DNA from: Amphiscolops sp. MND2022
Lineage: Eukaryota
NCBI GenBank assembly: GCA_964187785.1
Contig: OZ076409.1
Location: 32,738,001-32,802,000 of the forward strand
Reading direction: 5' to 3'
Length of the DNA: 64,000 bases
Every line of letters begins with the position of its first letter. Position 1 is the stretch's first letter. Position numbers and translations under genes: made by a program. The notes beneath the pieces are model-generated. The model was not told the DNA's origin. It did no database searches and saw nothing but the letters and a program-made list of their open reading frames with translations. Shown piece by piece: positions 2,957 through 43,881 of the stretch.

Positions 2957-4997
2957 CTTAAACAAGGTTGCACGTGAATTTTTCAAGTAAAACTCATTTC
3001 TTTATCTGCGAAGAAAAACACTTGTGTTCCTTTTAAGCTTCCCCTTATTCCAATTTCTAAAACTAGATATCAATTTTCCTGTGCCCACGTAAAAAGTTTC
3101 TTGCTACCCGCTGGTGACAATATTATATTGTTGTTTTCTCCAGTTTCATTTTTTTGCGCTTCGAAATCTATCAAAATTTTTCTTTCAAAATTGAAACTAT
3201 GAAAATTTTCAAATGAGTCAAAAATATTTCTGAATTATATCAAAACTTATTCTATTTTTGGACAATGTAATTCGATTCATGTAAAACGGACTCAGTATGA
3301 TGCTGTTTCTTACTAGCAGAAGTTCGGACTGGCAGTTAGTAAAATTTGTCGTCGTGTTTTTACAGTCACAAGGTCGTACTCGCACTTGGTAGGATATGAC
3401 TGATTTTACAAGCACATGGTCGGACTTGCACTTGATTGATCATGATGTTCAAGCACCACGCGTTGCTACTGTTGTCGCTGTGACCCACCAATGTATATCT
3501 TGTAATTAAAAAAATGTCAATTTTTCGAAACCAATTTTTTGTTCAATCTAATGGCACTGGCATCCTCAGACTTGGGGGCAAATGGTTAACGAAACAATTT
3601 TCACGGATGTTTTTTCCACAATGTGATGGTTGGAAAAAATGCTAACTTGCTAAACTTTTTTCGAAGTTACAATTGTTCTAATTTTGGAACTCTTGTTGCA
3701 GAAATTCCAATGAAACATTTTCAGAGATACCAAAAGTTCTAAAACTTCCCTTGATGTTTCGTATTTCTGGCACTTTCTTAACTTATTTGTTGTTGAACTT
3801 TGTAATTTTAGGCAAAAGAGCTGCGGTATTTTGAAACGCGTTCGCACAAAGGTATATTTTTGGTAAAGTAATTGGTTGTTTTAACTTCAAAGGTTCTATC
3901 TTATGTTAGTGTTGTTAGTATTGTGGACAATCCCGCTATCGCGCGATTGTCGAGCTCATCTTTTGGGGACAGCTCGTTACAGTATATGCAAATAGATGGA
4001 TATGATGGTCCAATGCCAATAATGGAGTCGACCGTCTTTCCGCGCCAGCCCTTCGCGCCACTTCATGTCGGTTTTTGTCAAAACGGGCTGCTTGCCAAGT
4101 AATGTATTGTCTCTCCGCTTCGCTGCCTTGCTGCACATAAGTGCATACTAGGTGCATAAGAACATAGCTGATTACATTATCATAATTAGTTCATTGGTGT
4201 TTAGCACACAAACTCAATCACTTTGCTTTTTCCCTAATTCAATTTTCAACCAATCAGAAGCGTTTAATAAACGTTTTTGGCGCAATGAAAAGCTTACTAA
4301 ATTTCAACGTTTAGGGAAACGGCCAAAATTCTGGCGGTTACCAGAAAAAGTCCATTTCGAGGGATTGTTTAAAAAGATTACGTACCAAATAACAAGAGCA
4401 AATAACAAAAACAAAATTAGTTTCAAATAACATTAAATTGAAAGTAATTTCTTATAAAATAAAAATCAAACTGAATACTTGGTTGAAAAAATGAACTCAC
4501 GTAATTTTATCTGTAATTTTTAATACTTTTTTCAGTGAATCCTTCGAATTTTCTATAATGTTTTCTATAAACACTAAAACTTTCTCGTGTTTTTATTTGC
4601 TCTAATGCTATTTGGGAATTCACCGTTTGAAAACAATTTTGCTCAATGTCATGCAATTTAGAAATTATGGATAAGATTTGGGATTCATGCTAAGCCCCAT
4701 CCTGGTTTAAAGACGTCACCTGGAATCGAGAAACTTGAACACCTCTCAAATAGGGAACTTGATTTGAGCCTATCAAATTATGTACTTACTCATCCCTGGA
4801 ACTTTTGCCAAAAGTGATTGGAATATCAACGCCCTGTGTTAGTGAGTTATCCCAACTTAGATGATTATATACATTCCGTATAATGAAACAATCTGGCATC
4901 TGGAAAGCAGTGATGTCCATTTATAATAATATAAATGATTTTTCATGTGCCAGTGGAAAGAACAGAAAAAACTTATACAGCTCGTGGACTCTATTCC

Positions 4998-5430: not shown

Positions 5431-6560
5431 TTTCATTCCCTGTACACGAAAGTTATTTTTCAACGTTATAAATGGCTCTTTGCTGCAAAACATCCGCTCT
5501 AATGCTCATTGTTGACCCGTGATAATCCTATTTTCCAAAGAAAAAACCAAAAAACGTTCAAAAGGGCCTAATTAGAAGTCAACTTGGGCTCCGCGACAGT
5601 ACCAAAAACGAACAGAAAACGCGATTTTATATGCAAGAACAATATGTTTGAAATATAAATAGAACGTTTTTCAAAATGCACTTGGTGTGGCCTTACCCTG
5701 TACTTTACTAAGCATCGATGGGACTTTCTAACGCAGTCGTGTTTGTTTTCAATCACCAAGTAATTTACTGATTGCTCTCTCCTAATTGCCAGCTTGTATG
5801 CAAAGCTCTCAACTTGGTTCATTCACCACCCAACACCCCATGGGGATGGCAGGGTTTATTGACGCTTCGCTTATTATTGTGTAAAAAATAATTAGGACGT
5901 TTTCGAAAATACACTCGGTGGGACCTGAAACTAGTTTACTAAGCATTGATGGGACTTCAACCGCAATCTTGTTTGTTTCTATTCGCCAAGTAAATAAGTG
6001 GTTGTCCCCCTCTTGATTAAATTCAAATCAACAGCTTGTATGGCAAGTTCTCAACTTGGTTCATTCACCACCCAACACCTGACAGGCGGATAACTATACT
6101 CTATCTTAATTTTTAGCACTTTTTTCAATCGATAAACTATTGGGAATCAATTAGTGGGACATAATTTGTGGGAATTGAAAAATTACTAGAGCGTGGTCAT
6201 GTGTCAAAAGTATGGAAGTAAGGGACCATGTGTTCAATCCTCCTCAAGGGGCCGCTACCTGTCAGTTGAAAGTTATTCTTTTAAATTTTAAGGCGAAGAA
6301 AATTTGCGTTTGAAGAACATAGTTTGAACAAAATTTGTATTTGAATCTCAAACTGTCAAAATGAAATTAGTTTCCAATATGAACGTTTAAGGTGCTAAGT
6401 TTAAGTCTTTTACATTCGAACACTGTCACTGATTTCTCAAAACATTTCTGACTGTCATTTTGACTGTTTTTTGGTAGCAACTAAATCTGGGTTTCAATTA
6501 CTTGAGAATTCTGGGAAACATTACAGAAGATTGTTCCACAATTTGAAAAATTAAACTGAA

Positions 6561-6954
6561 CTGGAAGAATAACACGAGTTGCCAGGAAGATGCAATGTGG
6601 TCTGCCCTCGTCGTCATGAACCTTTTTCATTCGACAGTTGGCGGCAACTGATTTGTCCTTGTCGTTGATAAACCTCGCCAAGCCAGAGTTCGTCTCATCG
6701 GAAGTGTCAATGAACACTGTGTCTTTTCCCTCCTGAACTTCCATCACGTAGTCAAAGTTGGCGACTTGAGTTGCTCTCCTCGGCCCCCAATAACTCAGGA
6801 GAAACTCTTGCGCTTCAAATTGCTTTTTCACGAAAAGCCCTCTTCCAGTCGTTCCATTGGCGAATTTGACGGTCTGGACAATGACACCCTCCGGATCAGA
6901 ATAGAGGAAGTCTTTCCACGATTCAGTTTTTCGCGCAGCACTACGAGTAGACAT
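6561..6954 (-). CDS. SET-domain lysine methyltransferase exon (SET8/KMT5A-like), first coding exon
   Basis: GRGLFVKKQF...FLLSYWG...FIDTSDETNSGLARFIND...NCRMKKV...PHCIFLATRVILP follows the SET8 motif order. The terminal GEELxYDYG is absent here but present at 2957-2931. An acceptor (ctcttcag) lies 6 nt before the ATG, and an Inr-like TCAGT lies near 7086. Confidence 0.85.
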
Positions 6955-7380
6955 GGTTTTCTGAAGAGCAAGAAAGGTAGGGTTTTGTCACACAGAGCAG
7001 TTCAACCAAAATTTAACATCAATAAAGCCAATGAAATATGAACTCTACATTATAATAAATAAGTAAACCTTTTAGTGTTCAACTGAAACCGTTCGATTAT
7101 GTTTTAGAATTTAGGAAGAATGAAAAAATGTGCTCAATGACAGTGTTGCTACTAGGAGAAAATTCAATCGAGAAAATCTAATACTTTAGTATTAGTGAGC
7201 CAAAAAAAACATTAGTGAGCCAAAATACTGTGATTCATTGTTTTAGCGAGAAAAAAAGAACAAAATTTTGAACCAATGTTGTCAGTTTTGAAAGCAAAGA
7301 GTTCTCAAGAAATCAATGTCAGCTTCGAATTGAAGAAAAGCCAAAGTTTTCATTGGTCTGGTCACGCTCCCATTTTCTGT

Positions 7381-10300
7381 TCAATTTTGTCGGACCCAAG
7401 ATTCTATTTCGTCCCAGTGGAAGTCCCAAGTGGATTCGCAGTACATGTAGAGGAAAATCTCCCAGGGGCTCTCGAAGGGCTCTTTTCCTTTGGGGTGTCT
7501 ACGTTGGTCAGCCTTGATGATAGCCAGCATCTTCCTCAGCTCAACTTTACTGACAGTGCTCTCTGAACGATGACGATATGACCACTCTCTGTAGAGGAAT
7601 ATGACAACCAAGGCTTCAAAGTGAGGAAATGCAAAGGAGGGTTGGAAACCTTGTTCGAGTTCCTTCTCGAAGGCCAGGGCGCTCCGATACATGTGCTTCT
7701 CCATAATGAAGTTACAGCCAAGCGCCACGCTCTCTTCCGCAGTGAACACAAAATGGATCCATTGACTGGGTAAGAACAGACAATCGCCTTTTTCTAGAAC
7801 TATCTGATGCGTTGTCACGTCCCGGTGAAAGCCGAAGAAGAATGAACTGAAACAGAGAGCATGTTGAAGAAGCAACTATTACCCCGGAATTGGTCATAGG
7901 GATCTAAAATTCACTACCGTTCGTTCATCGCGCACATAGTTGTCATATATAAAAATCGGTGGTAGATTAATACCATCGATCAATAGCAACGCTCGGTGCT
8001 GGAAAAAAAAGTGACAATTGTTGCGACCTAAATTTGAGATAAAAAAGGAACGCCCGGTGCTGGAAAAAAAGTAATTATTGCGGCTTCATATTTAAGATGA
8101 AGAAGCAACGCCGTGATGGAAAACGAGAGTGTTTTTAGGTTTCGAACGAAAAAGCAATCGATCATTGATGATTCTCCAACGTTTTAAAAATTGAAGAAAA
8201 AACCTAAAAATTACTTTTGAATTTGTACCTATTTTTCAGAACATTTATGACGCAAGCAAAGCTCCTGATCATGTGCCTTTGAATAAAGTCTCACTTACTT
8301 TCTGTTACCGCTCGCAAGCCATTCCTCAAAAAGCTTTTGATTTTCCTCGGTTGGCTCCACAACAAAGAAGTGTTTCTGGCCCTTTGCCAAAATGTAGAAA
8401 ACGGATGTGCCCGTGAAGTCCTGATGCCAGTTAGTTTGCGCTCCAGCTTCTGACATCAGCAGGTAGTCACTAATTCCTGATGTGAAATCAAATGCCAACT
8501 GGTTTTTGGGGCTCATAGAATTCTTCATGCAATGGCCAAAAGAAATGTCCGTCACTATATTGGGCAAACAAAACCGGTGGACCATCCCGCTCTTTGAATC
8601 CGCGTTGAAGTCAATCACATTCATCGGATGATATTCAGGCTCAAGGCTGCGGTCTTCATTGTGCTCAAGAAACTCCTCCAGAGTGAATTCATCTTCATTT
8701 TCTTGAATCGAAGAGAAACAGACATTAATTTTGACCTCCCCTGGAATTCCCTCTGTTACACAACGAAAAGACGTCAAGCTTTCAGCAGGAGGAGTTGCGA
8801 TACCAGGAAGTTTGTTGGTACACTGGCGTATAACAACAGGTTTTGAAGGGCTCCCGTTGCAAAACTTGGATCTAATATCGTCCACATTCAGCACATCAAA
8901 ATCATTTGTGGCAGGCGGTGCTGTTGCAAACACATGCTGCTGGAATTCCACAGAACCAACTTTGACTCCAATTGGGGGAAGCGAACTGAAGTTTGTTGAG
9001 TAAGAAGCGACGCCCTCCACGGCAGTCTCCAGCTGTTCCTCGACCGCGACTTCGGTTGTCCTCGGAGGTGTTTTTTTTAATCTTCAGCTCTCTCTTGAAC
9101 GTCAACCGCTCCAGCACCCGTAAGAGTTTCTTCGGATGAGACTTCACTTCTCTCTCCAAGCGAAGCAAGGGTTTCCAGTTTAAATTGAAGCGACTCGTCA
9201 CTTGAGAAAGGAGGGCTCTCATCCGCGAGAGATCGTCGTTCTGGGGTCTCTGGAACAAACGGTTCCAAAACTGCGCTTTGGTCGACAAGATTTGCACTTT
9301 CCTCAACTGCACCAGAGGATGTAGTGGGCTTTTGTTCCAAAAACGTGAAAGTTGTCGCCGTTTGGGAAGTACTGGTTGTGGCTGGAGCAAGATGGTACTT
9401 TTTTTTGTGCCGCGTTAGATCAAAACTTCGAGTCGTTGTCGTGCCACAAAATTCACACTCGAAGATACCTTTTTGGCGTTCTGAAACATAAGACTCGTTA
9501 TGCGAAGGAATCAAACGGAAGCCAAAAAGAATGCTACAATATTCGACTTGGTGCCAGTAAAAAAGTTGGTTATAATCGAAGTTTATCGATCAATCTTAGA
9601 TGTAATCTAGTCACTGTTCATGCGGTGCAACACCCGGTGCTGGAGAATGAGACTGTTCCTTAAAAATTGAAGAAAAAGCAACGCCCAGTGCTACAAAAAT
9701 GAGGTTAAAACAAGCGCGACACAATTCAACTAGCCACTGTCATGAATACTATATTGGTATTTATTTATATATTATTCAGGACAGGGCTTGTCAAACTATG
9801 CCAGAGACAGGTTATTCTAACATATCTCCCTGAATTTCGTTTTATGTATTCAATTAAAAAAGAAGTATCGAAACACTTTTTGACGAAAATCACTTTCTGA
9901 GTTTTTCATTGAAATCTTTTTCAGAAACACAGGATCTTTTTCTCAAAATATTGAAGAATAGTCTGTATTTTCAACCACCACTTGCAGGAAAATACAGTCC
10001 AGGTTGAAATTTAAAAACACAGCATAACAATTTCTGACAAAGACTGCATCAGACTTCATTCATTGAACTTCGTTGAATGAAGCGAGAATGTCTTGGTCCC
10101 AAAAATGTTGAACGAAGAATCGAGAAACGATATCAACTTTACTACCAGTAACAATGTTTTTCGAGTGGAGCAGAAATTAAAAAAAACCATCAAACACTCA
10201 ATTAAACTACCAGAATTCCTTCACCTGGATTCATTCAACCAAAACAAATCATTGTAACAAACTTTCAAAATGTTAAAATTTAACATGTCGAGCAGATTAG

Positions 10301-13300: not shown

Positions 13301-16300
13301 CAAAAATATATTAAGTATATTGTCCATCTTGATACATGTATTTGAAAAAAAATCAATTTAATCAAAAATTCATTTTCTTTTGACTTGTTCAAAACACTAA
13401 AAATTTTTGTTTTATTCCATCAAGGGGGGTTCGTGTTTGAAATTAAAATACGCGTGAGAATTTCCTAACGCGTATATATATTTTTGTGTTTTAAAAAAAC
13501 AATAAGTTTGATTGAGTATTTCAAACAATAATTTGAAAATAGGTTTTTCGAAAAATCAACTGACAACACATCAATTTCATTTTTTTTCATTGTTTAGTAA
13601 AATCAAGCATTTATTGTTATTTCAGTTTGCGGGGTCAATTTGAATATTTCAAGTTTTAAGGGGACGAGAACTTCCTAAAGCTTCCTAAAACTTCCTATAC
13701 CGAACAATAATTTGAAATTAACTGTATTTCAAAAAACGAACTGAGTTATCTAATCATGAAGTAAAGTTCAACGTTCAAAAAAATCGAAGTTTTAATTTTT
13801 CAATGTTCCTGTTGGGGGGGTTTGATTATAATATTTTGTGAATGTGCATGAATTTACAAATGCGCATAACGTTTTGATTTCTGAAAGTTTAAGTCCGACT
13901 TACAGTATTCCAAGCAATAAACTAATTTCATGAATTTAATTCAAAAGAATTAGTTGTTTCAAACGTAGTTCCAGTTGGGGAGATTTGATCAAACCAATTG
14001 ATAATATTATTTTCTGCATTATATAATTCCCAACCACCTTATAATTCTCAACCACTGAGCGTTGCTATTTTAATGAACAACCAATATGAAAACATTAGCC
14101 GAAAGGATTTTGTCAGGACTACAAAAAACCGAGTTAGTGTCAAGCAGCTCTCAACACTCATTTGCAACTCAGTTATCGGTTCACCTTCAGACACATACAA
14201 TTGCGTATACTGTAACGAGCTTCCCCTAACGAATGATGAACTTGACAGCGTGATTAACCACTACACTAACTCGGTTTGAAGAGAAGCAGTTTTAACTTAA
14301 TCATGCAAGATTACGTACCAAATAGCATATAAAAGAAAATAACGAAACGAAAATAGTCCCATTCAACGAAAAAGCTAAATTAGTTTCATAAAAACATTTA
14401 AAAAAACCGAATACAGTTGAACAATTAGCTCACGAATTTTGTCTCTAATGTTGATACATTTTTAGTGAGTGTTTTGAATTGTGAATGCTTTTGACCACAA
14501 AAACTTTCTCGTAAACAATTTTATTGTTTCCTGAAAAGCATTTCATTTTTTTAATTTGAAACCTTTAGTTTATTTGCTATTATGTTAGTTCGACCTTGTG
14601 CCTGTAAAAAAGTCTCATGTCCTACCAAGTGCGGGTCCGACCTTGTGCTAGTAAAATTACGACCGCATATAGGACATTAACACAAAATGTGTTGTGCAAA
14701 AGCTGATTTCATGCTTTTCTGCTCCTTTCCTAAAAAACTATACACAAGTGTCCAGCGTCACCAGTGATGACTTTACACGAGGGGGTGCCCTCGTTCAGAA
14801 TTTAACCCTGAAAAACAGCAAAGGAAGAAACCCCCTCCTGTTTGAGGTTTTTAGCCATGTTTGGGATCAAAATTTTCAAACTTGCTGTTAGGAATAGTGG
14901 GTTGAAATTTCATTGATTGCCTTGCAAACGTTTTAAGCAGCACTAACATGCCCCCCGTTGAGAAATTTCAAACACCGCCCCTGTGCGTCACGGAAAGGAA
15001 AACAAACTACAATTGGAAACTGAAGACAAGAAATGAGATTACTCTTATTTCAAGAACGATACATAGGTTCTACGAAAGCTTCTGTAATTGAAGACCTTTT
15101 AAAAAAGGTTAATTCCCAAATAGCAAACAACATAAGTCTTGAAAACTAGACTGTTACTGCAACTTAAGATTAGAATAAAAGAACAACGCTCGGTCCTGGA
15201 AATTGAGACTATGACTGTGCCTTAAAATTCGAACAAAAAAGCAACGCCCGGTGCTAACAAACTAGACTGCTACTGCGCTTTAAGGTTCGAAGAAAAAAGC
15301 AACGCCCGGTACTGGAAATTGAGACTATGACTGTGCCTTAAAATTCGAACAAAAAAGCAACGCCCGGTGCTAACAAACTAGACTGCTACTGCGCCTTAAG
15401 ATTCGAAGAAAAAAGCAACACCCGGTACTGGAAATTGAGAATATGACTGTGCCTTGAAATTCGAACAAAAAAGCAACGCCCGGTGCAAACAAACTAGACT
15501 GTTACTGCGCCTTAAGATTCGAAGAAAAAAGCAACACCCGGTACTGGAAATTGAGACTATGACTGTGCCTTGAAATTCGAACAAAAAAGCAACGCCCGGT
15601 GCTAACAAACTAGACTGTTACTGCGCCTTAAGATTCGAAGAAAAAAGCAACGCCCGGTATTGGAAATTGAGACTATGATTGCGCCTTAAGATTCGAAGAA
15701 GAAAGCAACGCCCGGTACTGGAAATTGAGACTATGACTGTGCCTTAAAATTCGAACAAAAAAGCAACGCCCGGTGCTAACAAACTAGACTGTTACTGCGC
15801 CTTAAGATTCGAAGAAAAAAGCAACGCCCGTTTCTGGATATTGAGGCTGACTGCACCTTGAGTTTCGGGAAAAAGCAACGCCCGGTGCTGGGAATTGAGA
15901 CTGACTGCGCCTTGAGATTTGAAAAATACCTGAGCCTAGTAAAACAAGATTAAAATAAAAAATATTTATCAAAATAAAAATTGAAAAAGCAAACAACTTA
16001 CTTGGAGGCGGTGAAGGAAACTCACTGGGTGTAACTCCTTGTTCCACAGCTTCTTTTTGTCGCTTCTGACAAGTCTTTTTAGCAACATGCTGCTGCAATT
16101 TGGTCGTGCTTGCGCAAATTAACCCACATAGTTGGCAAGTGCAGCGGAAAATGCTTTGAGCTTTTCGTGTTCTTTGGCCTTAAAAACAGAATCGTGTGAA
16201 AACCTGAGAACTGATTTGGAAAACACAATCTCATGAGTTTATCAATAAATTGATGATTGATTTTTACGATCGATAAATTTTGATTGATTTTTTATCGATA

Positions 16301-17041: not shown

Positions 17042-19657
17042 ATCTTGTTCCGAGAATGATTGATGATCAGTTTTTTAGTTTTCAATTTTGAATTTGAAAA
17101 CAAAGTTTTAAATACAATTTTGTACGTCCTTGAGTGCAACCATTATATCGTCGAAAAGAAAATTCAAAACTTTACTTCATTTTTCGAAACAAATGAGAAA
17201 ACTGAAACATTGAAACCAAAAGAAAAATGATCATCACTGATATCGGTGGAAATATTGTGATTTGAATAGGCGAGTAGACGATAGGTATTCAAATTTTGAT
17301 TGAGAGAGCGAACGCAACTGAATGATAAAGAGAATGGATATTGAATGGCGACTGCGCTGGAAGAAGCGATGAGTCACATGAGTCACCGCTTTGAACTCCG
17401 CAGCTCGCTTTGTTAGAATCATAAACAAACATTGCTTGCACGACGCAGCATCGTTCAACTAGTAGAATTTCCACCGCACTCTTTTTTCGTCGACAAAACC
17501 AAGAAAGTTGACTCCCAATAAAAGAGCGGCAGCTCGGAATACAAACTCAGACTCCTTTCATTTCAAACAAAACTTGGTTTCAAAACCCGAACATCGAGTT
17601 GAATAAAGAATGTAAACAGAAAGTAGTTACCGAACTGCGCTGCTCGTGATTTTTTTCTTTTTTTTTCGATTATATCAAAGGAACAGAGATCAAACAGCTT
17701 TAGTGTTTGGGGGGGGGAGAATTTCCCAACAAGGTGTACCTTGGAAATAGATGACATGGTCCGATTTAAGAAATAACTGGTTGGATTTTATGCCTTTTGG
17801 TTTCTATGAGAACAGTTTTCAAAAAGTAAACTGAATAAATGAATCCTAAATTAAATTTTATGAATAATGTAAATCAAAGATATTTTTATTGAGGGGGTGG
17901 GGGGCGTTGTTTGTTTGGTACATGTATTTCAAAAAATCAATCTGATCAATAGTTCATTTTCCTTTTACTTGTTCAAAACAATTTATTTTTCATTTAAAAT
18001 ATTCTCCAGAACTGCAATCCTTTTCAATACAAAAACAAGATATAGAGACCGAATTCTATATTCTTCTCACGTATACCGAACAATAATTTGATATTAACTG
18101 TACTTCAAAAAAACGAACTGAATTAACTTAATAAAGTTCAACGTTCGGTAAAATCGAGGTTTTAAATTTTCATTGTTGTTCCAGTTGGGGGGGGGGGGTT
18201 TGATTATAATTATTAAATAATTAATCAATTTGTGAAAGTGCATGATTTTCCAAATGCGCATAACGTTTTGGTTTTTGAAAGTTAAGTCCGACTTACAGTA
18301 TTCCAAGCAATAAACTAATTTGATGAATTTAATTCAAAGGAACTAGTTGATTGTTTCAAACGTTGTTCCAGTTGGGGAGTATTTGATTAAACCAATTGAT
18401 TTTTTTCCATTATATAATTCCCAACCACCTTATAATTCTGAACCACCGAGCGTTGCTATTTTAAGCCGAGTCAAACAACCAAAATGAAAACATTGGTGAA
18501 TTTCCAAATAACATTGGGAATAAGAATGCCGAAAACATTATCTGTAAGGATTTTGTCGGGGCTATAAAAAACCGAATTAAATAGTGTCAAGCATCTTACA
18601 ACACGCAAATGCAAATACCGGTTCACCTTCAGACACATATAATTGCGTATACTGTAACGAGCTGCCGCTAACAAATGATGAGCTTGACAGCGTGATTAAC
18701 CACTACACTAACTCGGTTGAAAGAGCAGCAATTTTAAGTTAATCAAATAACGCCAAACTCTTGTAGCGAATACTATATAAGAGCAAATTACAAAAACGGA
18801 ATTAGTTCCATTCAACATAGCGAAATTATTTTCATATATTACGAAAAGCCGAATACCCGGTTAAACAATTAAACTCACGTTTTTGTCAGTAATTTTAACA
18901 CATTTTCAGTTAGTCTTTTGGATTTTGAATGCTTTTGACAACTTTCCCAAACAATTTTAATTTCATGTTTGGTGAAGCTCTTTTCATTTTTATTTTTTTA
19001 AAACTAATTTGGTTTTTCATTTGCCATTTTGTTGGTTCGACCTTGTGCTAGTAAAAACAGGTCTCATGTCCTACCAAGTGCGGGTCCGACCTTGTGCGAG
19101 TAAAATTACGACCGCATGTATTAAGTGCAAGTCTTGTGCTATTGAAAAACGGCCTCATGTCCTACCAAGTGCGGATTCACGAAAACTGAGTTTACATTTC
19201 GCTCGATCAACTGACTTGCTTTGTGATTTTAAAAATCGTTGTAGATAACTAGGAATGACAGATGCTATATAGCAAACGAAAATTCCTGAAAATTCAGGTG
19301 GTCAAGATAATTATGAGAATAAATTTTGTTATATAACTGAGAATTCTAGTTTATTACTGCCAGTCAATTTCTATGTTTGTAGCTACAAACAGCAGTAGTT
19401 GACTGGTTGATAACTTGCTTGAGTTATCTCGGTTCCCGAATTTCAAAGCTCTTCGAGACAAAATAACGTGTTTTTCTTACGGTTCTAGTAACCTATTCAC
19501 AATAACACTTGTAGCCTATATTAACACTCAACTTATCTCGTACCAAAACCAAGTATGTGTTCTATAAATTCAATTCAACCAACAGAATGAGAAAAACAAA
19601 TAGTTGAAGCGAGAAAACAAATTCAGAAATAAGAATGTTTTTGAAAATTGAAAGTTT

Positions 19658-24251: not shown

Positions 24252-26539
24252 TTGCACGCACACATTGTATTTTTTCAATTCAAGTCGTTTCATTTATATT
24301 TTATTTTCATTTATAAAAAATATTTTATTACTGTAACAGCGATAAGTTTCAGTTGCAGTTAGAGTTATAAAATAAGTAGAGTAATATCGAGTAATAAAAA
24401 CGGGGGAATTAAATGGGGGGGATCAACAAAAGATCCAAACTTTCTCGTTGTGTGTGTATGTCCTACCAATGCTCGTATCTAACTGTTATCCTTGTATACA
24501 AACTGTCCAAGTATTAATTGTTCAAAACAAGGATGACTTTTAAAAAAGTTTTGAAACATGGATATTAGAAACATTGTAATTAGTGATTTGAATTTTTAGA
24601 TTTTCAACATTTTAAAAAAACGTCTTAATTAACACTTGAATGAATAAAAATACTTATTTTTGAGATAACTAAAACTAAGAGCGTTTGTTTCAACGAATCG
24701 TCAGCCAAATAAATTCGAAAAACAAACAAAATTGAGCTAATTTCTAGAAATACCTTTGTCAAGTACATTAAGCTACTGAGTCAAAAGGTCTAAGAGTCCT
24801 TTAAAAAAGCCCTGTCGCCGCGTTTTGGCCTGATTATGGATGGCTACTTTAAATTTTTGTTGATATTCGTTTTTCGCTGAGAATAAAAATAATAATTATA
24901 AAGCAATAGTAATATTCGGATAAAATATTGAACACCCCTGATTGTATGTATTTGGCTAAAACTGTAGCGCAGTATACGAACAAATACTCTCAAAAAAGCC
25001 TGGTTGGAGTAATCATACTGTGCGAGGAAGTGGAGAAGGGCATTGCTCTCAACACTACTGCATTATTTCCACCGTGGATGCGATTGAAACATCAACAATC
25101 ACAGTGAAATCTATTCCATGAACCATGAAGGTGGCTCCTACCGTGATTCGAACCACAATTTAACTATGCAGCTAGTGTGAGATCAATCTTTCGCGCAACC
25201 GACTACTCCAACAAGACCTTGAAGCATTCAGTAGTGTTGCAGTTCATATACCATATTTACTGCGAAGCAACGAATATATGACAACGCGGGAGTCAACAGC
25301 ATTTTGAAATAATTCTTGGTACGCCAGCTTCACGTACCTGCTCGTTGTCAGGTTTGACACGAGCTTAAAATTGTTTGAAGTGCAGTCGAATTTCACTTTC
25401 ATATTCTATACCCTCATTGAGAGGTAAAACTCATTATCGTTGGTCATTTTGAATCTCCGTTCTCCCAAGTTATGAAATTAACCATCCTCCTAGTGAAATG
25501 CAATTTTCGATGAGGGCTCTTCCCGTTAAATGTTAAAAGTCAGGTGCTAAGTGTTAAGTTAAAATGGAGCAAAACCGGTCTGAGCCAATCAAATTTCAGA
25601 AAAATGGATGGACCGGAACGAAGTCCTCACGCAAAATTGAGTTGTGAATTAAAAAGTTCATTTTTCTCTGAAGTTTTCCGTGCTTTCGTTCCGGTCCGCA
25701 TGCTTTCAGCCAATCAGATTGCAGAGAAATCGCAGTACGCTCTTTTTGAAGAGGATAAACAAAAGGATGAACAAGTAAGACAGCATAAGGACGGAAAGAT
25801 GCAAAAGGCTCAAAACAGATCGGTACCACCTAGGTTGTAAAATATTGTATTTCAATACATTTTGCATGAAATTAAACTACTTATATTTATTTTTCAAGAA
25901 AACAAATGATTTAAACTATTGTCGCTTTATTGTGCAGGAGTGCTTGAGAAAACGATTTCAGTTTCACATAACTTCATTCACTGTATTTACTTACAACCCG
26001 GATGCTCGAATTATTGTTCAAAGTCACATAGATAGTCATTATGGAAGTATCTCGCAGTACTGAAAAATCGTTCAGCTGAGTTTGACGTGTTTGATGTAAA
26101 AAATTTGAAACAATAAATTATTGTAATTGGAAAGGCCGAAAAATAAATTATTTGAATATATTTATTGCAATTATTTTCAATTATTTACTTGACACTCTTG
26201 GGTACCACTACATACCTACAATTTTTCAAGCAGTCGTGTAAACCACTGCACCAACAGAACATTCATTTGATTTTAAAGTTTGCTCTTTATTGCCTGAAGT
26301 TTTATGCTTTTTAATAAGAGCAAATTAAGAGCAAATAACATAAAAACAAAATTATTCCCATTTAACATAAAAATGAAATTAGTTTCATATAACATAAAAA
26401 ATAAATCCAAATACCCGGGTAAACAATCGAACTCACGAAAATTTATCTGTAATTCTCATACTTCTTTCAGTGAATCTCTTTTGCATTGTGAATGCTTTAG
26501 AACACTAAAACTTTCGGATCTTTCCTGTTAAATGCTAAT

Positions 26540-26995
26540 AAATAAACTAAATGAAATAGCAACGCCCGGTGCTTAGAACACTGCTATTCAATAATCTAAA
26601 TGAAATAGCAACGCCCGGTGCTTAGAACACTGCTATTAAATAATCTAAATGAAATAGCAACGCCCGGTGCTTAGAACACTGCTGTTAAATAATCTAAATG
26701 AAATAGCAACGCCCGGTGCTTAGAACACTGCTATTAAATAAACTAAATGAAATAGCAACGCTCGGTGCTTAGAACACTGCTATTAAATAATCTAAATGAA
26801 ATAGCAACGCCCGGTGCTTAGAACACTGCTATCGAATAAACTAAATGAAATAGCAACGCCTGGTGCTGAGAACACTGCTATTAAATAATCTAAATGAAAT
26901 AGCAACGCCCGGTGCTTAGAACACTGCTATCGAATAAACTAAATGAAATAGCAACGCCCGGTGCTGAGAACACTACTATTAAATAAACTAAATAA
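26540..26995 (+). repeat. Tandem array, 49-bp unit x9, core AGCAACGCCCGGTGCT
   Basis: Near-identical unit ctaaatgaaatagcaacgcccggtgcttagaacactgctattaaataat. Confidence 0.95.
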
Positions 26996-27075
26996 AAAAA
27001 TGTCGGGCTAAAAAGAAAGTTGTGATAAAAAATCACAACCTTGAAACACTGACACCCATTATCATGTATTTTTAG

Positions 27076-27153
27076 AGAGGCTCTCAGTTAGGGGATCACA
27101 TAGTGTCGCCCATAACAAGACCCACGCCGGGAACGTGGCCTCTGGAGGGTCTC
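27076..27153 (-). ncRNA. HDV-like (CPEB3-type) self-cleaving ribozyme candidate
   Basis: GAGACCC(P1) TCC AGAGGCC(P2) ACG(P3) TTCCCGG(L3) CGT GGGTCTT(P1', G1.U wobble) G [P4] CTGA(J4/2, catalytic C) GAGCCTCT(P2', one bulged A). Confidence 0.8.
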
Positions 27154-35756: not shown

Positions 35757-36514
35757 GCCCAAAAAACCAAAAAAGTTGGAAAAAGGACGAATATAGAAAA
35801 TCAACCAAGCTTCCGGCGCAACTCAAAGATTTCAGACACGTCAGTTTTTCTCCCTCATTGATTGAGAGTAGTAGTACGTTGCATTTTATGTGGGGGGAGG
35901 GGTGTTGAGTGAGTAAACAAATATGGTAACAACAAAACTTTCTAAAACGTTACGTAGTAACTGCAACACGAACATGGTGTATTCGAACATGAAAATTCTC
36001 ACCGAAAGGCAAACAAAATCCGAATAACTTTTTTTACAACCTTGAAAATACGAGTTCCAGTAAATTTTTTCCATTCGTTTTCTAGGCCACAAAAAAACGT
36101 TCCTTCCCTTGGCGTGGTGGAAAGTAATAAAAATCGAGTGGTTTGTTAGGAATGCAAATGGAGGGATGAAGGGAAATCAAATCAATAAAAAGTCTTTTAT
36201 TCTAGCAACTTTGAAAAGAATGTGCTATTAGATTATTTTACCTTTTTTTGAAGTTTGATTGCGGTGGAACAAAATTCCTTGATATTGCCTTCATTTGCGT
36301 ATTGGAAACAGTTATAAGTAATCCAACCAATTTCTATGGAAATAATCCAAGTTTCTTTTTACACCGAATTTTCACATTCTAGAAAATGAAAAACGACCTA
36401 AAATGATTGGAAAAAGGTTTTTGAAATTTCGGGAAAGTGTTAAATTTTCAAGGAAAAAGCCCTTAATTGCGTTCTAGTTTGATACATGTCCCGCAAAAGT
36501 GGAATATGATCACT

Positions 36515-36915
36515 TGGTGTAAATAGTATTTTGGGTAAAATAGTCAATTAGTGTAAACTTGTCAAAGACTGTAGTAATCCATTAGTGTAGTGGTGCAGCC
36601 AAGTGTAATATGAACGCGGTGAATTCCAGTCAAAATGCGTAGTTAGTAAATGGTGTAAAACAGTCTCAAAATATACAAGCTAATTTAGTAAGGTGTAAGT
36701 TAGTCAAAAATTGGTTAAATTTCACTTTTGAGGAGTATTCAAGTATAAAACTACCAAAAAGTGTAAATTAGTCAAAGTTTGACTATTTTACAGCAATTTA
36801 ATAACTACTTCAAACACACTAATTTACATTGAATAGTTGCTTGGCGTTTTTTTACTTTGACTAAATTACACATTACCTTTGACTGAATTACATACATACA
36901 GTAAAATTTACATTG
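36515..36915. repeat. Foldback-like array of short GTGTAAATTAGTCAAA-type units, forward then inverted about 36775
   Basis: gtgtaaa.t.gtcaaa repeats left of gtcaaagtttgac; tttgacta.attacac repeats to the right. Confidence 0.6.
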
Positions 36916-37113
36916 GATGACACATGCATGCAAAAGAATTCTAGTCATTCAGTGCATCTAACTAATTATATCGATTTAGAGTTTAATGATTTGAACTAAT
37001 TGCCTACTGGTCATGCCAGTAAGCAAAATGTTTAGAACTAAACTGGACTATGTGTTCATTTTCCAACACACTACAGGGTTGAAGTATTGTTACTTGATGT
37101 ATTTACAATTTTG

Positions 37114-37191
37114 GAGACCCTTCAGAGGCCACGTTCTCGGCGTGGGTCTTGTTATGGGCGACATTATGTGATCCACTAACTAAGAGCCTCT
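37114..37191 (+). ncRNA. HDV-like (CPEB3-type) self-cleaving ribozyme candidate, second copy
   Basis: GAGACCC TTC AGAGGCC ACG TTCTCGG CGT GGGTCTT G TTATGGGCGACATTATGTGATCCACTAA CTAA GAGCCTCT; same fold as 27076-27153. Confidence 0.8.
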
Positions 37192-37796
37192 TTAAAACTG
37201 AATTATACTGGGCAAAATTAATTTTTCGTTGAGATTTGTAATCTTAGCAGTTATTTGTGTCCGACAATGTTGATGGAAAACAGTTTCACAAAACAAAAAT
37301 TGTTGACGAGGAGGTTTAAGTAGTCACAAAAATACAAATAACAATTTTACCGGGTTATCAGTATTCTTTTTATGTTAAATGAAAGTAATTTCAGTTTTAT
37401 GTTATTTGAAGCTAAAAGGCTTGAAAACCAAATTTTTGCATAACTACAGTGATACTAATTGTATATACCACATTTACAACCCCCACACAGCCTCCGTTAC
37501 ACCTTGATACGAATGACCTACAGCCCAATGATACTAACGAAATGAGGATAGAACGAAGTGAACGACAAGCAGCGCGTCTTCATCGAAATATGACAGGAGA
37601 TACCTTTCAGCTACGAAACTGACTTTGACAACACTTAATCAAACCCAACTGATCATCACAGTAAGCAAACATTCAAACATAAACTTTATGGTTTGGATTT
37701 TTGTGATTATTTAAACATCAACGCATTGGAGTGAAGCATTGTAATAATACACGCGTGATTATAATGCTGTTTAAAATGGAATCGTTACGTAGAACT

Positions 37797-40700
37797 GTTA
37801 AATATATTATACAATTCAACTACAAAATTTTACACAATTCCAGTTGAACTGTGAGAGAAACGAAAGATAAATTTGTGTGAGTTTAAATATGTTTGCGATG
37901 CAACGGCATGTTGGGGATGGTGGCGCAGTTAATACTTCCCTTGGGTATGAAGTGAAGCTAGCACCGTTGTCTACCGCCGAATCGATTCCCTAACATACAC
38001 TGCTCGGTGACTCTATACAGACCACTCTGTATTACCCTGTAGTACAAAGCATCGCTACTTGGCAAAACTTCCAATACTTTGTTATTCTTTCTGAAAGTTA
38101 TTCATAATCTTTGAACACCTCCAAAACTAGTTTCAACATCAAACCTTTAACAGTTTTGAAATTAATTAAATTGAAATCAAAAATATGATTTTCTTCGCAG
38201 AAAAAACTAAACTAATTTTTTTAAGCTCTTTTGAACTAAGTGCAAACTGATCATGACAGTAAGCACAATTTTCGACCGTTACTTTTTTTGTTATTATAAT
38301 AGCTAATTATAACTGAAAAATTACAATGTCAATTACCAGAGTGTCGGTCTTTTCTTTGATTCATCACTTGGAAACTCAAATTTACTGGGTTTCGAAATTC
38401 AAAGGAATAAAGGTGGACTCTGTAATATTTTGAAAATAGGTTCAAAAGATAGCCGAGCCTTTGATCGAGGCCCTAAAAGCCCTAAAAAATCAAAATGGTT
38501 GTTTATCTGAGTTTCCCATTGCTTAGATATTGGAATTGTGTCTGCGGTAAAATATTTGATGTTTCCCAGATCAAAGTAAAACTGAAAAAACCCATAGGAG
38601 GTGCTCGAAGTCTTGAGAAGTTGTTAAGCCTGGCGAGCTCAGAAAGATCGTTTAGGACTCAAAAATCTCAAAACCTAGTTTCGACAAAAAATTCGGCTCG
38701 AAACAACTAAATATAACAAAAATGCTCAGCTGGAATTAGCTCGACTAAACTGACCACTTCCCCTGGGGCGTCGCAAACAAGAGGTGCAGGGCCTCGTGTG
38801 TTCTCGACGTCTCGAGTGAGACTTACGACACAGTGAGAATGATCTATAGAGATGAGGTATGTTTTTCATTCTCTGTTTTTTCTGAGCTTTTTATTGTTGA
38901 CGTTTTGTCTCAAAAACGACTGTTCACAGTTATCCTGGTGCATGCTTACTTTGAGGGGACCAGTACTCAGTCCGAGCTGGATGTGTTCGCCTTTTGGCAA
39001 TTGCACAAAATGCATATAAATACTTTGCATCAAAAAAAATTTAATTGAATGTCTGCATGCTTTTCGTCTTTTCTAATGAATCTGTGCTTGCACCTATTAA
39101 GTCGTCAACAAAAACTCTGTTGTCAATCTGAAAACCTCCCCCCTTATCCTTTTTTCAGGTGGTATGGAAAAAAGGCACCTGATTGTTTTTTGTGCTTCAA
39201 AACCTTCTAGAATTATTAATATTCATTCATGTCAGTATCAACATATCCAAATTCTCGCCGAAAAAGGCGGTCGACAAGAATTACTCTTCTGAACAATTCT
39301 TCAATTCTACATTTGATTTCTTGTTGTTTCGAGCCCTCTCTCAATCATAGTGTCAATTCGTCTTTATCTTCCCCGACATTCTCTACACTTCGCTTACAAT
39401 GCCACCAAGTTAGTTGTACTCTTTTGTTTTTTCTTCTTTTGAGCAACAAAATTGAATTTTTTCCGACGAAAAATTGGTAGTTGATTGGGAAACTATGTGC
39501 TTAAGGGAAAAATAGTGTTTCAACACTGTCACGTAAAGACATTACGGATAACTAATGCTCTGTAACAGAATTTGAAAAAGAAAGGGGTCAAACTAGTGAT
39601 TGGTCTGGCTCGACGTAATCAACTTCTTCCAAAGTCGAACAAAAGGGTCGATAAAGTTTTGCAGAAACAGCTCGAAAAGTGCAAATCTTTGAACGTTCAC
39701 AAGATGTGTACCAGAGGCGTCGACATGACAGACCATTTTCACTACACTGAGCAGATTTTGGAACAAACGTTGCACGATGTTCTTCAATTTGCGTCTTCAC
39801 AAAACAACTAGTAGCTAAATTACAGTTTTCATTTAACACTACTATTCTTCAAGAAAAGGCTCTTTTTCTGAATTTCTATCTAGTTTTGTATATAATCACT
39901 TACTACTTTGTTTTACGTTATAACTGTCAACAACCCCTTATCAAGGCAAAAATACGAGAAAAATGAAAAATGCTCAAAGAAGGTTTCATCGTCTTATTCT
40001 GGTTGGAATTTAAACTTAAACATGGTTGCATGGTCTCGACTCACAGGAAAACTTAGTTTCAGCAATATTTTTCAATTTAGAAAATTGAAATTTCAGTTGT
40101 CAATGGCTATCATGAATACCAATTGTCAAATAAATCATTGGAAAGACAACAAAGATCCTTCAGACTATTTGTTTTCCAAAAAAGAAAAAATCCACTCATT
40201 GGGCAAAATTTATGAAAAACTCTAAATTCACAAGGAACACTGTTCTGTTGCAAAATTTAGGCTCATTTTTCAACATTTTGTAGTCGGCGCTTCATGAAGT
40301 GAACGCGATTAATATAGTGGCTTTTCTTTTTTCTTCTTCTAGCCACACGAGCTAACCAAAATATTTCCTAAAAGTTCTACAAAAAATTATTGCACCAAAC
40401 TGCACTCTTTGGCCTAGCGAACTGAACCAAAATGGTTTTACCTGTTTTTCCGCGTAACATACCATACCGAACGAGACCAAAGAGTCCCCTTTTCAATTTT
40501 TTTCGGCACTGCGAGACGTTTTTTTTCGGAATTTTTTTCACCAAAGAGTCCCCCTGCATTTTTTTGATGTTTTGCGACAGAATGGATGTTGGAAAATCCC
40601 AAAGGGTTCCCCCTTTCAGTTTTTTCGGCATTGTGAGATTTTTTCCCGAAAATGATTTTTTTTCAATTTTTTCATGTTTTGCGACCGAGTGGATGTTGAA

Positions 40701-43660
40701 AAACCTCAAAGGGTCCCCTTTAAGGGGATATATTCAGTTAAATATATTATACAATTCAACTACAAATTTTTACACAATTCCAGTTGAACTGTGAGAGAAA
40801 CGAAAGATAAATTTGTGTGAGTTTAAATATGTTTGCGATGCAACGGCATGTTGGGGATGGTGGCGCAGTTAATACTTCCTTTGGGTATGAAGTGAAGCTA
40901 GCACCGTTGTCTACCGCCGAATCGATTCCCTAACATACACTGCTCGGTGACTCTATACAGACCACTCTGTATTACCCTGTAGTACAAAGCATCGCTACTT
41001 GGCAAAACTTCCAATACTTTGTTATTCTTTCTGAAAGTTATTCATAATCTTTGAACACCTCCAAAACTAGTTTCAACATCAAACCTTTAACAGTTTTGAA
41101 ATTAATTAAATTGAAATCAAAAATATGATTTTCTTCGCAGAAAAAACTAAACTAATTTTTTTAAGCTCTTTTGAACTAAGTGCAAACTGATCATGACAGT
41201 AAGCACAATTTTCGACCGTTACTTTTTTTGTTATTATAATAGCTAATTATAACTGAAAAATTACAATGTCAATTACCAGAGTGTCGGTCTTTTCTTTGAT
41301 TCATCACTTGGAAACTCAAATTTACTGGGTTTCGAAATTCAAAGGAATAAAGGTGGACTCTGTAATATTTTGAAAATAGGTTCAAAAGATAGCCGAGCCT
41401 TTGATCGAGGCCCTAAAAGCCCTAAAAAATCAAAATGGTTGTTTATCTGAGTTTCCCATTGCTTAGATATTGGAATTGTGTCTGCGGTAAAATATTTGAT
41501 GTTTCCCAGATCAAAGTAAAACTGAAAAAACCCATAGGAGGTGCTCGAAGTCTTGAGAAGTTGTTAAGCCTGGCGAGCTCAGAAAGATCGTTTAGGACTC
41601 AAAAATCTCAAAACCTAGTTTCGACAAAAAATTCGGCTCGAAACAACTAAATATAACAAAAATGCTCAGCTGGAATTAGCTCGACTAAATTGACCACTTC
41701 CCCTGGGGCGTCGCAAACAAGAGGTGCAGGGCCTCGTGTGTTCTCGACGTCTCGAGTGAGACTTACGACACAGTGAGAATGATCTATAGAGATGAGGTAT
41801 GTTTTTCATTCTCTGTTTTTTCTGAGCTTTTTATTGTTGACGTTTTGTCTCAAAAACGACTGTTCACAGTTATCCTGGTGCATGCTTACTTTGAGGGGAC
41901 CAGTACTCAGTCCGAGCTGGATGTGTTCGCCTTTTGGCAATTGCACAAAATGCATATAAATACTTTGCATCAAAAAAAATTTAATTGAATGTCTGCATGC
42001 TTTTCGTCTTTTCTAATGAATCTGTGCTTGCACCTATTAAGTCGTCAACAAAAACTCTGTTGTCAATCTGAAAACCTCCCCCCTTATCCTTTTTTCAGGT
42101 GGTATGGAAAAAAGGCACCTGATTGTTTTTTGTGCTTCAAAACCTTCTAGAATTATTAATATTCATTCATGTCAGTATCAACATATCCAAATTCTCGCCG
42201 AAAAAGGCGGTCGACAAGAATTACTCTTCTGAACAATTCTTCAATTCTACACTTGATTTCTTGTTGTTTCGAGCCCTCTCTCAATCATAGTGTCAATTCG
42301 TCTTTATCTTCCCCGACATTCTCTACACTTCGCTTACAATGCCACCAAGTTAGTTGTACTCTTTTGTTTTTTCTTCTTTTGAGCAACAAAATTGAATTTT
42401 TTCCGACGAAAAATTGGTAGTTGATTGGGAAACTATGTGCTTAAGGGAAAAATAGTGTTTCAACACTGTCACGTAAAGACATTACGGATAACTAATGCTC
42501 TGTAACAGAATTTGAAAAAGAAAGGGGTCAAACTAGTGATTGGTCTGGCTCGACGTAATCAACTTCTTCCAAAGTCGAACAAAAGGGTCGATAAAGTTTT
42601 GCAGAAACAGCTCGAAAAGTGCAAATCTTTGAACGTTCACAAGATGTGTACCAGAGGCGTCGACATGACAGACCATTTTCACTACACTGAGCAGATTTTG
42701 GAACAAACGTTGCACGATGTTCTTCAATTTGCGTCTTCACAAAACAACTAGTAGCTAAATTACAGTTTTCATTTAACACTACTATTCTTCAAGAAAAGGC
42801 TCTTTTTCTGAATTTCTATCTAGTTTTGTATATAATCACTTACTACTTTGTTTTACGTTATAACTGTCAACAACCCCTTATCAAGGCAAAAATACGAGAA
42901 AAATGAAAAATGCTCAAAGAAGGTTTCATCGTCTTATTCTGGTTGGAATTTAAACTTAAACATGGTTGCATGGTCTCGACTCACAGGAAAACTTAGTTTC
43001 AGCAATATTTTTCAATTTAGAAAATTGAAATTTCAGTTGTCAATGGCTATCATGAATACCAATTGTCAAATAAATCATTGGAAAGACAACAAAGATCCTT
43101 CAGACTATTTGTTTTCCAAAAAAGAAAAAATCCACTCATTGGGCAAAATTTATGAAAAACTCTAAATTCACAAGGAACACTGTTCTGTTGCAAAATTTAG
43201 GCTCATTTTTCAACATTTTGTAGTCGGCGCTTCATGAAGTGAACGCGATTAATATAGTGGCTTTTCTTTTTTCTTCTTCTAGCCACACGAGCTAACCAAA
43301 ATATTTCCTAAAAGTTCTACAAAAAATTATTGCACCAAACTGCACTCTTTGGCCTAGCGAACTGAACCAAAATGGTTTTACCTGTTTTTCCGCGTAACAT
43401 ACCATACCGAACGAGACCAAAGAGTCCCCTTTTCAATTTTTTTCGGCACTGCGAGACGTTTTTTTTCGGAATTTTTTTCACCAAAGAGTCCCCCTGCATT
43501 TTTTTGATGTTTTGCGACAGAATGGATGTTGGAAAATCCCAAAGGGTTCCCCCTTTCAGTTTTTTCGGCATTGTGAGATTTTTTCCCGAAAATGATTTTT
43601 TTTTCAATTTTTTCATGTTTTGCGACCGAGTGGATGTTGAAAAACCTCAAAGGGTCCCCC
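37797..43660 (+). repeat. Recent tandem duplication, period 2940 bp (37797-40720 and 40737-43660)
   Basis: ORF track repeats at offset 2940; only a handful of substitutions and a poly-T length difference seen; novel filler at the junction. Confidence 0.97.
39480..39780 (+). pseudogene. piggyBac-like transposase remnant (duplicated at +2940)
   Basis: ITDN*CSV (DN..S motif) followed by G..RRN and RGVDMTDH (GGVDxxDQ-like), broken by stops and frameshifts. Confidence 0.4.
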
Positions 43661-43881
43661 TTTCAGTTTTCCGGCATTGTGAGACTTTAGCGCGCCAGGG
43701 GCTTGCGCTAGCGGGCCCCGGCGCGCCACTCGGTCCATTTTTTTAATAGGTAATTTTTTCAAAAAAAAATTCGAAAAATTTTCGATTTTCGAGTACTGTA
43801 AAAGAATACTTGACACTTGGAAATCCTTTTGCTATTTTTGAGCCTTAGATATGGCGCCTACTTGGGCCGGTCCCGGCTTGT
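43316..43881 (+). mobile_element. Non-autonomous Helitron/Helentron-like repeat with internal subrepeats (3'-truncated copy at 40376-40720)
   Basis: Internal caaag(a/g)gtcccc repeats; GC-rich hairpin near 43690-43727; 3' hairpin GCCGGTCCCGGC followed by TTGT. Left boundary uncertain. Confidence 0.5.

Follow-up and report, generated by a model that had tools for sequence, protein, structure and literature searches.

In the HDV consensus, G1 pairs with U or C, L3 reads U-Y-C..G, and J4/2 reads C-N-R-A, which contributes the catalytic C and a conserved A. The helices of HDV-like ribozymes, and their cut 5' of position +1, are named in the portion of PMC4035085 that was accessible, and the available text of a review places the known genomic members at the 5' ends of retrotransposons, in an intron of CPEB3, and at bacterial loci (PMC6765202). 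A second class of small structured RNA relevant here, the H/ACA RNAs, is described in humans, in the accessible part of PMC5207380, as having hairpins of 55-70 nt, a loop-to-box distance of 24-28 nt, and an excess of U at the end of the loop. Repeat-derived H/ACA RNAs have also been reported, with no ribozyme head mentioned in the part of that report available to us (PMC10948791).

The locus described here lies in a 64,000-nucleotide stretch of contig OZ076409.1 of Amphiscolops sp. MND2022 (hereafter the window), where the minus strand from 27153 to 27076 can be read as an HDV-like ribozyme. Counting from G1 at 27153, P1 is GAGACCC/GGGTCTT (7 bp, with G1.U), J1/2 is TCC, the 5' strand of P2 is AGAGGC followed by C, P3 is ACG/CGT (3 bp), and L3 is the 7-nt TTCCCGG. 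A single C-G pair, P1.1, uses the G at 27116; P4 occupies 27114-27088; and J4/2 is CTGA, whose first base, C27087, is the predicted catalytic residue. The 3' side of P2 then consists of a G-C pair, a 1-nt bulge, and six further base pairs, the last base being 27076. Judged from its sequence, the HDV-like fold is real, and every helix can be assigned. The ribozyme is the same as that of CPEB3 and of the R2, RTE, Baggins, and L1Tc heads in its 7-bp P1 beginning with G1.U or G1-C, its 3-bp P3, and its 7-nt L3 of the form U-U-C..G, as well as in the single C-G P1.1, P4, and the C-N-R-A of J4/2; unlike those ribozymes, it has a one-base bulge in P2, and no Rfam model matches it.

A search with a structural model or descriptor, as the initial annotation had suggested, gave a divided answer. 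A pseudoknot descriptor that we composed after inspecting the window's sequence recovered 27153(-) as one of exactly two matches in the window, the other being 37114(+), and yielded none in 2,555,602 shuffled bases on both strands. Rfam, on the other hand, returned no match in the window at the gathering threshold or at E<=10, and nothing, snoRNAs included, at the module that contains the ribozyme (see below) in 16 loci. Because Rfam models do not score pseudoknots, this negative result weighs little. Nested-only folding, with a program that cannot form the pseudoknot, gave P1 a probability of just 0.1-0.3 in context.

The ribozyme is present in many copies in the genome (1.07 Gb in 1,929 contigs). 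A DNA search yielded 1,125 candidate matches, and 22 of 40 scored genomic matches, the window copy among them, were identical to the ribozyme. Exact patterns, whose counts are lower bounds, gave 1,116 matches for a 25-base degenerate core (0 for the reversed control) and 1,397 for a 15-base core (3 in the control). The descriptor was passed by 28 of the first 30 genomic matches along contig 1.

From 208 occurrences in fetched loci we aligned 33 distinct, mostly intact copies, excluding truncated copies and two that lack the catalytic C (L173 and L247). Paired cells made up 93.1% of this alignment, a value that none of 500 shuffles reached, and controls with slid pairing were 36-49% paired. Both sides had changed in 18 of the 39 pairs, although many of these changes were inherited jointly within one clade, so that events are fewer than cells. 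Compensatory changes across these diverged copies affect the second base pair of P1 (AU in 27, GC in 4), the outer pair of P2 (AU in 18, GC in 14), and the first pair of P4 (UA in 18, CG in 15); the last of these, a UA-to-CG exchange adjoining the catalytic C, fixes the register of P4. G1 pairs with U in 24 copies and with C in eight, with one other arrangement. The catalytic C, the A of J4/2, and the following G were invariant in all 33 copies at positions left free in the search pattern, whereas that pattern itself prescribed P3, P1.1, and parts of P1 and P2, whose invariance is therefore uninformative.

The nested double pseudoknot of P1, P1.1, P2, P3, and P4 proposed by the initial annotation can thus be assigned in full and is borne out by the compensatory pairs, and the 4-nt J4/2 combined with a bulged P2 is supported by the invariance of C28 and G98. 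The predicted cut between 27154 and 27153 agrees with both structure and covariation. By analogy with the ribozyme family, Mg2+-dependent cleavage 5' of G1 is very probable, and would produce an upstream piece ending in a 2',3'-cyclic phosphate and a module beginning with a 5'-OH.

The limits first given for the ribozyme were kept, but the conserved unit, which had been overlooked, continues to 27001. The ribozyme is the 5' half of a module of ~153 nt, in which it is followed by an A-rich linker, a 53-nt hairpin, and ACA. The linker (27058-27075, minus strand) contains an H-box-like hexamer, ACATGA (27067-27062), whose position 3 is A in 33 of 33 copies, position 6 in 30, and position 1 in 27; ANANNA occurs at the aligned column in 24 of 33 copies and anywhere in this A-rich linker in 30. 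The 3' hairpin (27005-27057, minus strand) is closed by invariant GG/CC, and its upper stem covaries in six of seven pairs in the 33-copy alignment; two changes in the window copy weaken the middle stem. The hairpin is followed by a G-ACA tail plus 3 nt (26998-27004, minus strand; ACA at 27003-27001), which would define the 3' end if the RNA is H/ACA-like. ACA stands one base past the stem in all 33 copies, and was not fixed by the search pattern. Across these copies the hairpin measures 49-56 nt, the loop-to-ACA distance is 21-24 nt (24 in 21 of 33), and the last base of the terminal loop is U in 28 of 33. A search of metagenomes added one full module (L266:1185-1334(-)), with a new hairpin sequence in the same geometry. 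Viral contigs contained 92 short-pattern matches and a single, weak descriptor match, which we rejected as a chance occurrence given its mismatched P1.

The geometry of this tail suggests an H/ACA-like RNA, with a hairpin at or just under the human size range. The canonical hairpin 5' of the H box is absent, and because the ribozyme stands in its place we do not class the module as a canonical H/ACA RNA. The closest parallels are AluACA RNAs and the 3' domain of telomerase RNA, with which the module shares a repeat-borne origin, an aberrant 5' domain, an H-like box, and one 3' hairpin followed by ACA, as well as a similar loop-to-box distance and a U in the terminal loop. It differs from these atypical H/ACA RNAs in that self-cleavage, and not intron trimming or a cap, would define its 5' end, and in its shorter hairpin (49-56 nt). 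The internal loops of the hairpin are mostly self-paired, vary between subfamilies, and hold no conserved guide sequence; a self-target pattern had no match in element A, and neither a CAB box nor a BIO motif was seen in the tail. On this geometry, the chances appear even that H/ACA proteins would load on the hairpin and that the 3' end would be trimmed to ACA+3.

Homology between families spans about 150 nt, from G1 to the CC-G-ACA end, and falls off at the ACA tail; the flanks are T-rich. When the window's family was compared with eight copies with unrelated flanks, identity was 92-97% in the ribozyme, 64-97% in the tail, and 45-64% in the 100-nt flanks, against an unrelated baseline with a mean of 50% and a maximum of 62%. 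Two further pairs of copies have a common upstream flank (84-88%). By these alignments, the module is far better conserved than its flanks. Since the host elements are mosaics, recombination or gene conversion is possible and could partly account for the identity across hosts. Upstream of the module, poly(A) signals were not enriched (2 of 30), and YAG within 12 nt of G1 was found in 14 of 30 copies compared with 9 of 30 in a control stretch, a difference we consider unconvincing.

The window copy lies 2.4 kb inside a 34.7-kb DNA transposon on the minus strand, which occupies window positions 1-29541, with its left end at 29541 and its right end ~5.2 kb beyond the start of the window. We fetched 16 host copies at 10 kb, one of them truncated; the other 15 aligned collinearly with the window, from 29541 down, for as far as fetched (94-98% identity), and all five copies that were extended further stopped at the same point, giving the length of 34.7 kb. 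Copies of the element are ~97% identical to each other, and of 140 recombinase matches scored, at least 45 reached 94%; the transposon is young. A module model search found only one module in the window's element. Directly after it, still inside the transposon, is a 49-bp tandem array of 9.5 copies (26533-26997), and the element also carries a 57-bp repeat frame and several arrays with a common AGCAACGCCCGG motif. L097:4841-10000 covers this host element as well.

The host ends in TG repeats outside 20-bp subterminal inverted repeats. These TG-repeat termini were present at 13 left ends and at all six right ends inspected, with no long terminal inverted repeat (TIR) or classical target-site duplication (TSD). 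Degenerate internal copies of the terminal motif (window positions 3297-3425, 14587-14663, and 19035-19200) suggest nested or ancestral ends. Past the window start, the element encodes a recombinase of 314 residues (L097:6663-7604(-)) for which there was no Pfam or PDB sequence match. Its frame has 1,878 relatives, in which R73, K125, R194, H220, and Y229 (R-K-R-H-Y) are conserved; an alignment-based model (pLDDT 88.9) had XerH and XerA as its best folds, and its homologues, read by eye, are single proteins that unite SET with the recombinase. According to the text available of PMC8869645, there are CryptonV families that target microsatellites or have microsatellite-type termini. Because of the R-K-R-H-Y residues, the XerH/XerA folds, the SET-plus-recombinase homologues, and the microsatellite-type ends, all likenesses to CryptonV, the host is probably a CryptonV-like tyrosine-recombinase DNA transposon. 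The CryptonV label itself we take from the order of the domains. Unlike CryptonV, these hosts reach 34.7-38 kb and carry JmjC and zinc-finger cargo, tandem arrays, and the ribozyme module.

The module is not confined to this element. It occurs in Crypton families with recombinases that share 92-93% and ~70% identity with the window's; its local context differs among these families, one of which has it in both orientations. In the 70% family, L251 has, 30-760 nt ahead of the module, a small RING-finger gene and another short frame, the latter ending ~24 nt before G1; in the window's element they are decayed. The module is also found in elements that end in repeats of TAA or TAG, and SET frames are present in two of these. 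One such element, of 11.5 kb and ending in (TAA)n (L389:3025-6803(-) and L389:8545-9567(+)), has SET, a zinc finger, and a recombinase-like but divergent frame, P0204, which tblastn with the window's recombinase did not find; another (L188/L190/L200) starts at a long (TAG)n and has two diverging modules of different clades ~570 nt apart.

The second descriptor match in the window, a module copy at 37114-37266 on the plus strand, has a G at position -1 and several changes in P4 and J4/2, and sits in a truncated piece (~36480-38035) of a giant element, B1. B1 (L151+L379+L380) exceeds 26 kb, begins with CATTAC, and has SET and JmjC-like frames; two of its long frames have no Pfam match (P0205 and P0206), possibly a transposase. 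Elsewhere in the window are a 2.9-kb tandem duplication (37797-43662, 99.8% identity), which arose either recently or through misassembly, a duplicate of 503 bp at 58950/60584, and the exons of an amino-acid permease, a host gene (54126-55842(+)).

A covarying variant of the module is carried by MITEs of ~1.1 kb with CCCAGG TIRs and 2-bp duplications. Across sampled copies the TIRs take the form CCC(A/T)G with a 2-bp TSD, and a strict test for both was positive in 13 of 75 sampled copies and in none of 100 controls, the 13 including one subterminal-repeat match and three from one array. A weak double-jelly-roll-like Pfam match, below the cut-off, lies beside one MITE (L262:14-367(+)). Transposase_21 (PF02992) scored over the cut-off in the larger hosts of this type, and at least 5 of 19 Transposase_21 matches lie ~4 kb upstream of an EnSpm-type module on the same strand. 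Two autonomous copies share 99.8% identity across 9.2 kb; in them the module follows the transposase ORF at a distance of 2.7 kb and lies 410 nt from the TIR. The second host is EnSpm/CACTA, by its Transposase_21, CCC termini, and 2-bp TSD, the termini and TSD as seen in the MITEs.

By flanks and TIRs, 24 of the first 30 copies could be placed in DNA-transposon contexts and six could not, with a flank library that contained unmapped 50-kb Crypton stretches. In a tree of the module, 14 copies hosted by Crypton or giant elements separated from 11 hosted by EnSpm at 100/100, and in 0 of 500 shuffles; eight rows of this tree were unlabelled, some labels were given by family likeness, and one copy, the minus copy of L188, an EnSpm-type module inside a Crypton-like element, was left out. 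Where host ends are mapped, the module is mostly 0.4-5 kb from an end.

The initial annotation had linked the ribozyme to JmjC/SET genes downstream on the same strand. This geometry holds, but the C2H2/JmjC/SET exons (6484-9589, minus strand) lie 17.5 kb downstream of the module as cargo of the same 34.7-kb transposon. Among 60 copies the module has at least 29 different upstream contexts and faces either way relative to the genes of its host, so it is not dedicated to the JmjC/SET genes. It is most improbable that the ribozyme processes the element's JmjC/SET/recombinase transcript or aids its translation, in the manner of an R2 head. The shared strand in families A and A2 would fit such a role, and R2 and L1Tc ribozymes have been proposed as IRES-like heads (in the available text of PMC6765202); several tandem arrays, however, intervene over those 17.5 kb, no ORF follows the module, in EnSpm the transposase gene precedes the module, and modules that are antisense, doubled, or facing converging genes are seen in families C, G, D2, and B1.

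We somewhat favor a reading in which the module is cargo of several DNA-transposon families, self-cleaves as HDV-like ribozymes do, and releases a small RNA protected by the H/ACA-like hairpin. RNA ends bearing a 5'-OH are handled poorly by 5'-3' exonucleases. As the ribozyme family suggests, a Pol II transcript through the module would be severed 5' of G1, and the downstream 5'-OH piece would be trimmed from its 3' side to the protein-bound hairpin-ACA, leaving ~156 nt. DNA transposons are copied as DNA, yet the structure stays conserved, which indicates selection at the level of the element. Since the module is mostly near mapped element ends, the likeliest gain may be the cutting of read-through RNA that crosses the element's boundary, which would limit long or double-stranded RNA that triggers silencing, the small stable RNA being a product or effector; we propose this tentatively. 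More doubtful, if possible, is the broader idea that Crypton, EnSpm, and the giant SET/JmjC element have in common a ribozyme-headed, splicing-independent H/ACA RNA that recruits dyskerin and serves as an anti-silencing device alongside the SET/JmjC enzymes.

The cut alone might matter, in which case the module would terminate or insulate transposon transcripts and the hairpin would be a generic exonuclease block or protein site unrelated to H/ACA. We consider this unlikely: A, A2, B1, F, G, D2, and EnSpm do have the module close to an element end, the H box fits ANANNA imperfectly, and the internal loops are largely self-paired and free of conserved guide sequence, but a generic hairpin would need neither an invariant ACA, nor a near-constant loop-to-ACA distance, nor a U at the end of the loop. 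Somewhat less unlikely is a selfish, SINE-like retroposed RNA whose 5' end is made by the ribozyme and whose hairpin is recognised by a reverse transcriptase of some kind or confers stability, as in retroposed snoRNAs, and which landed in a few ancestral transposons and rides along without helping them. Homology that begins at G1 and ends at ACA between T-rich flanks, and the variety of upstream contexts, fit such an origin, and HDV-like heads are known on non-autonomous retroposons (PMC3414825, PMC4035085, and PMC6765202, each as far as available). So does the passive amplification of broken copies: a family with a 57-nt deletion in the module has three copies 97-99% identical over 6 kb, and L426 and L439 have the common tail but a replaced ribozyme. 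As these broken and ribozyme-less versions also spread, the module is not required for the host to multiply. However, TSD lengths in 30 copies did not exceed those in mismatched controls (old TSDs may have decayed), there is no poly(A) or repeat tail, and no non-LTR reverse transcriptase was found in the 101 ORFs scanned of 113 near sampled copies, which gave LTR, Tc1, and host-gene matches only. Nor did 17 tail-only loci, inspected over 125 nt, reveal a LINE; they were mostly decayed modules, with one intact module and one chance match. The one empty-site pattern searched, for family D, had no match, the module tree follows the host superfamily, and the structure is still kept inside hosts that are copied as DNA. 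In being short, non-coding, and abundant with a ribozyme at its 5' end, the module resembles R2 SIDEs and NARTc/SIDER; it differs from them in its amplification inside DNA transposons and in having, among the samples examined, no TSD, tail, or LINE partner.

A retrozyme-like unit, of which tandem copies are cut to monomers that may circularise and be reverse-transcribed, is very unlikely. Its best case is an array of ~248-nt units at L425:989-3285, in which every unit has a module and three units satisfy the descriptor, joined by looser arrays in L364, L402, and L366; tandem units of ~250 nt with one ribozyme each are a feature of non-LTR retrozymes as well. Most array units are decayed, however, and most sampled copies, including 27153(-), are single and lie in DNA transposons; moreover, the ribozyme is HDV-like, and the animal retrozymes described in the accessible part of bioRxiv 2026.07.22.740005 use type I hammerheads. 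The preferred reading remains that of DNA-transposon cargo from which self-cleavage would free a small, hairpin-protected RNA.

Unlike known HDV-like ribozymes, then, the module is internal cargo of DNA transposons, with no ORF behind it and a fixed hairpin-ACA tail. In the literature searched, which lay outside Repbase and most subscription papers, we found no report of an HDV-like ribozyme in DNA transposons; the term "DNA transposon" does not occur in the available text of one review (PMC6765202), and that of PMC6431247 mentions ribozymes for retroelements only. Within that literature the class of ribozyme is ordinary, and its setting and architecture are unreported.

Genomic HDV-like ribozymes have been explained mostly as 5' cutters of retrotransposon RNA. 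DNA transposons have no RNA intermediate, so a different explanation is needed for a ribozyme that two unrelated DNA-transposon superfamilies have kept with compensatory changes. The window's host is, in addition, a Crypton-like element of unusual size that carries histone-modifying cargo. A natural cassette of ribozyme and ACA hairpin would be a new, splicing-free way of producing small, stable RNAs, and a compact format for their expression. The system also makes it testable whether self-cleavage helps transposons to evade RNA-based silencing.
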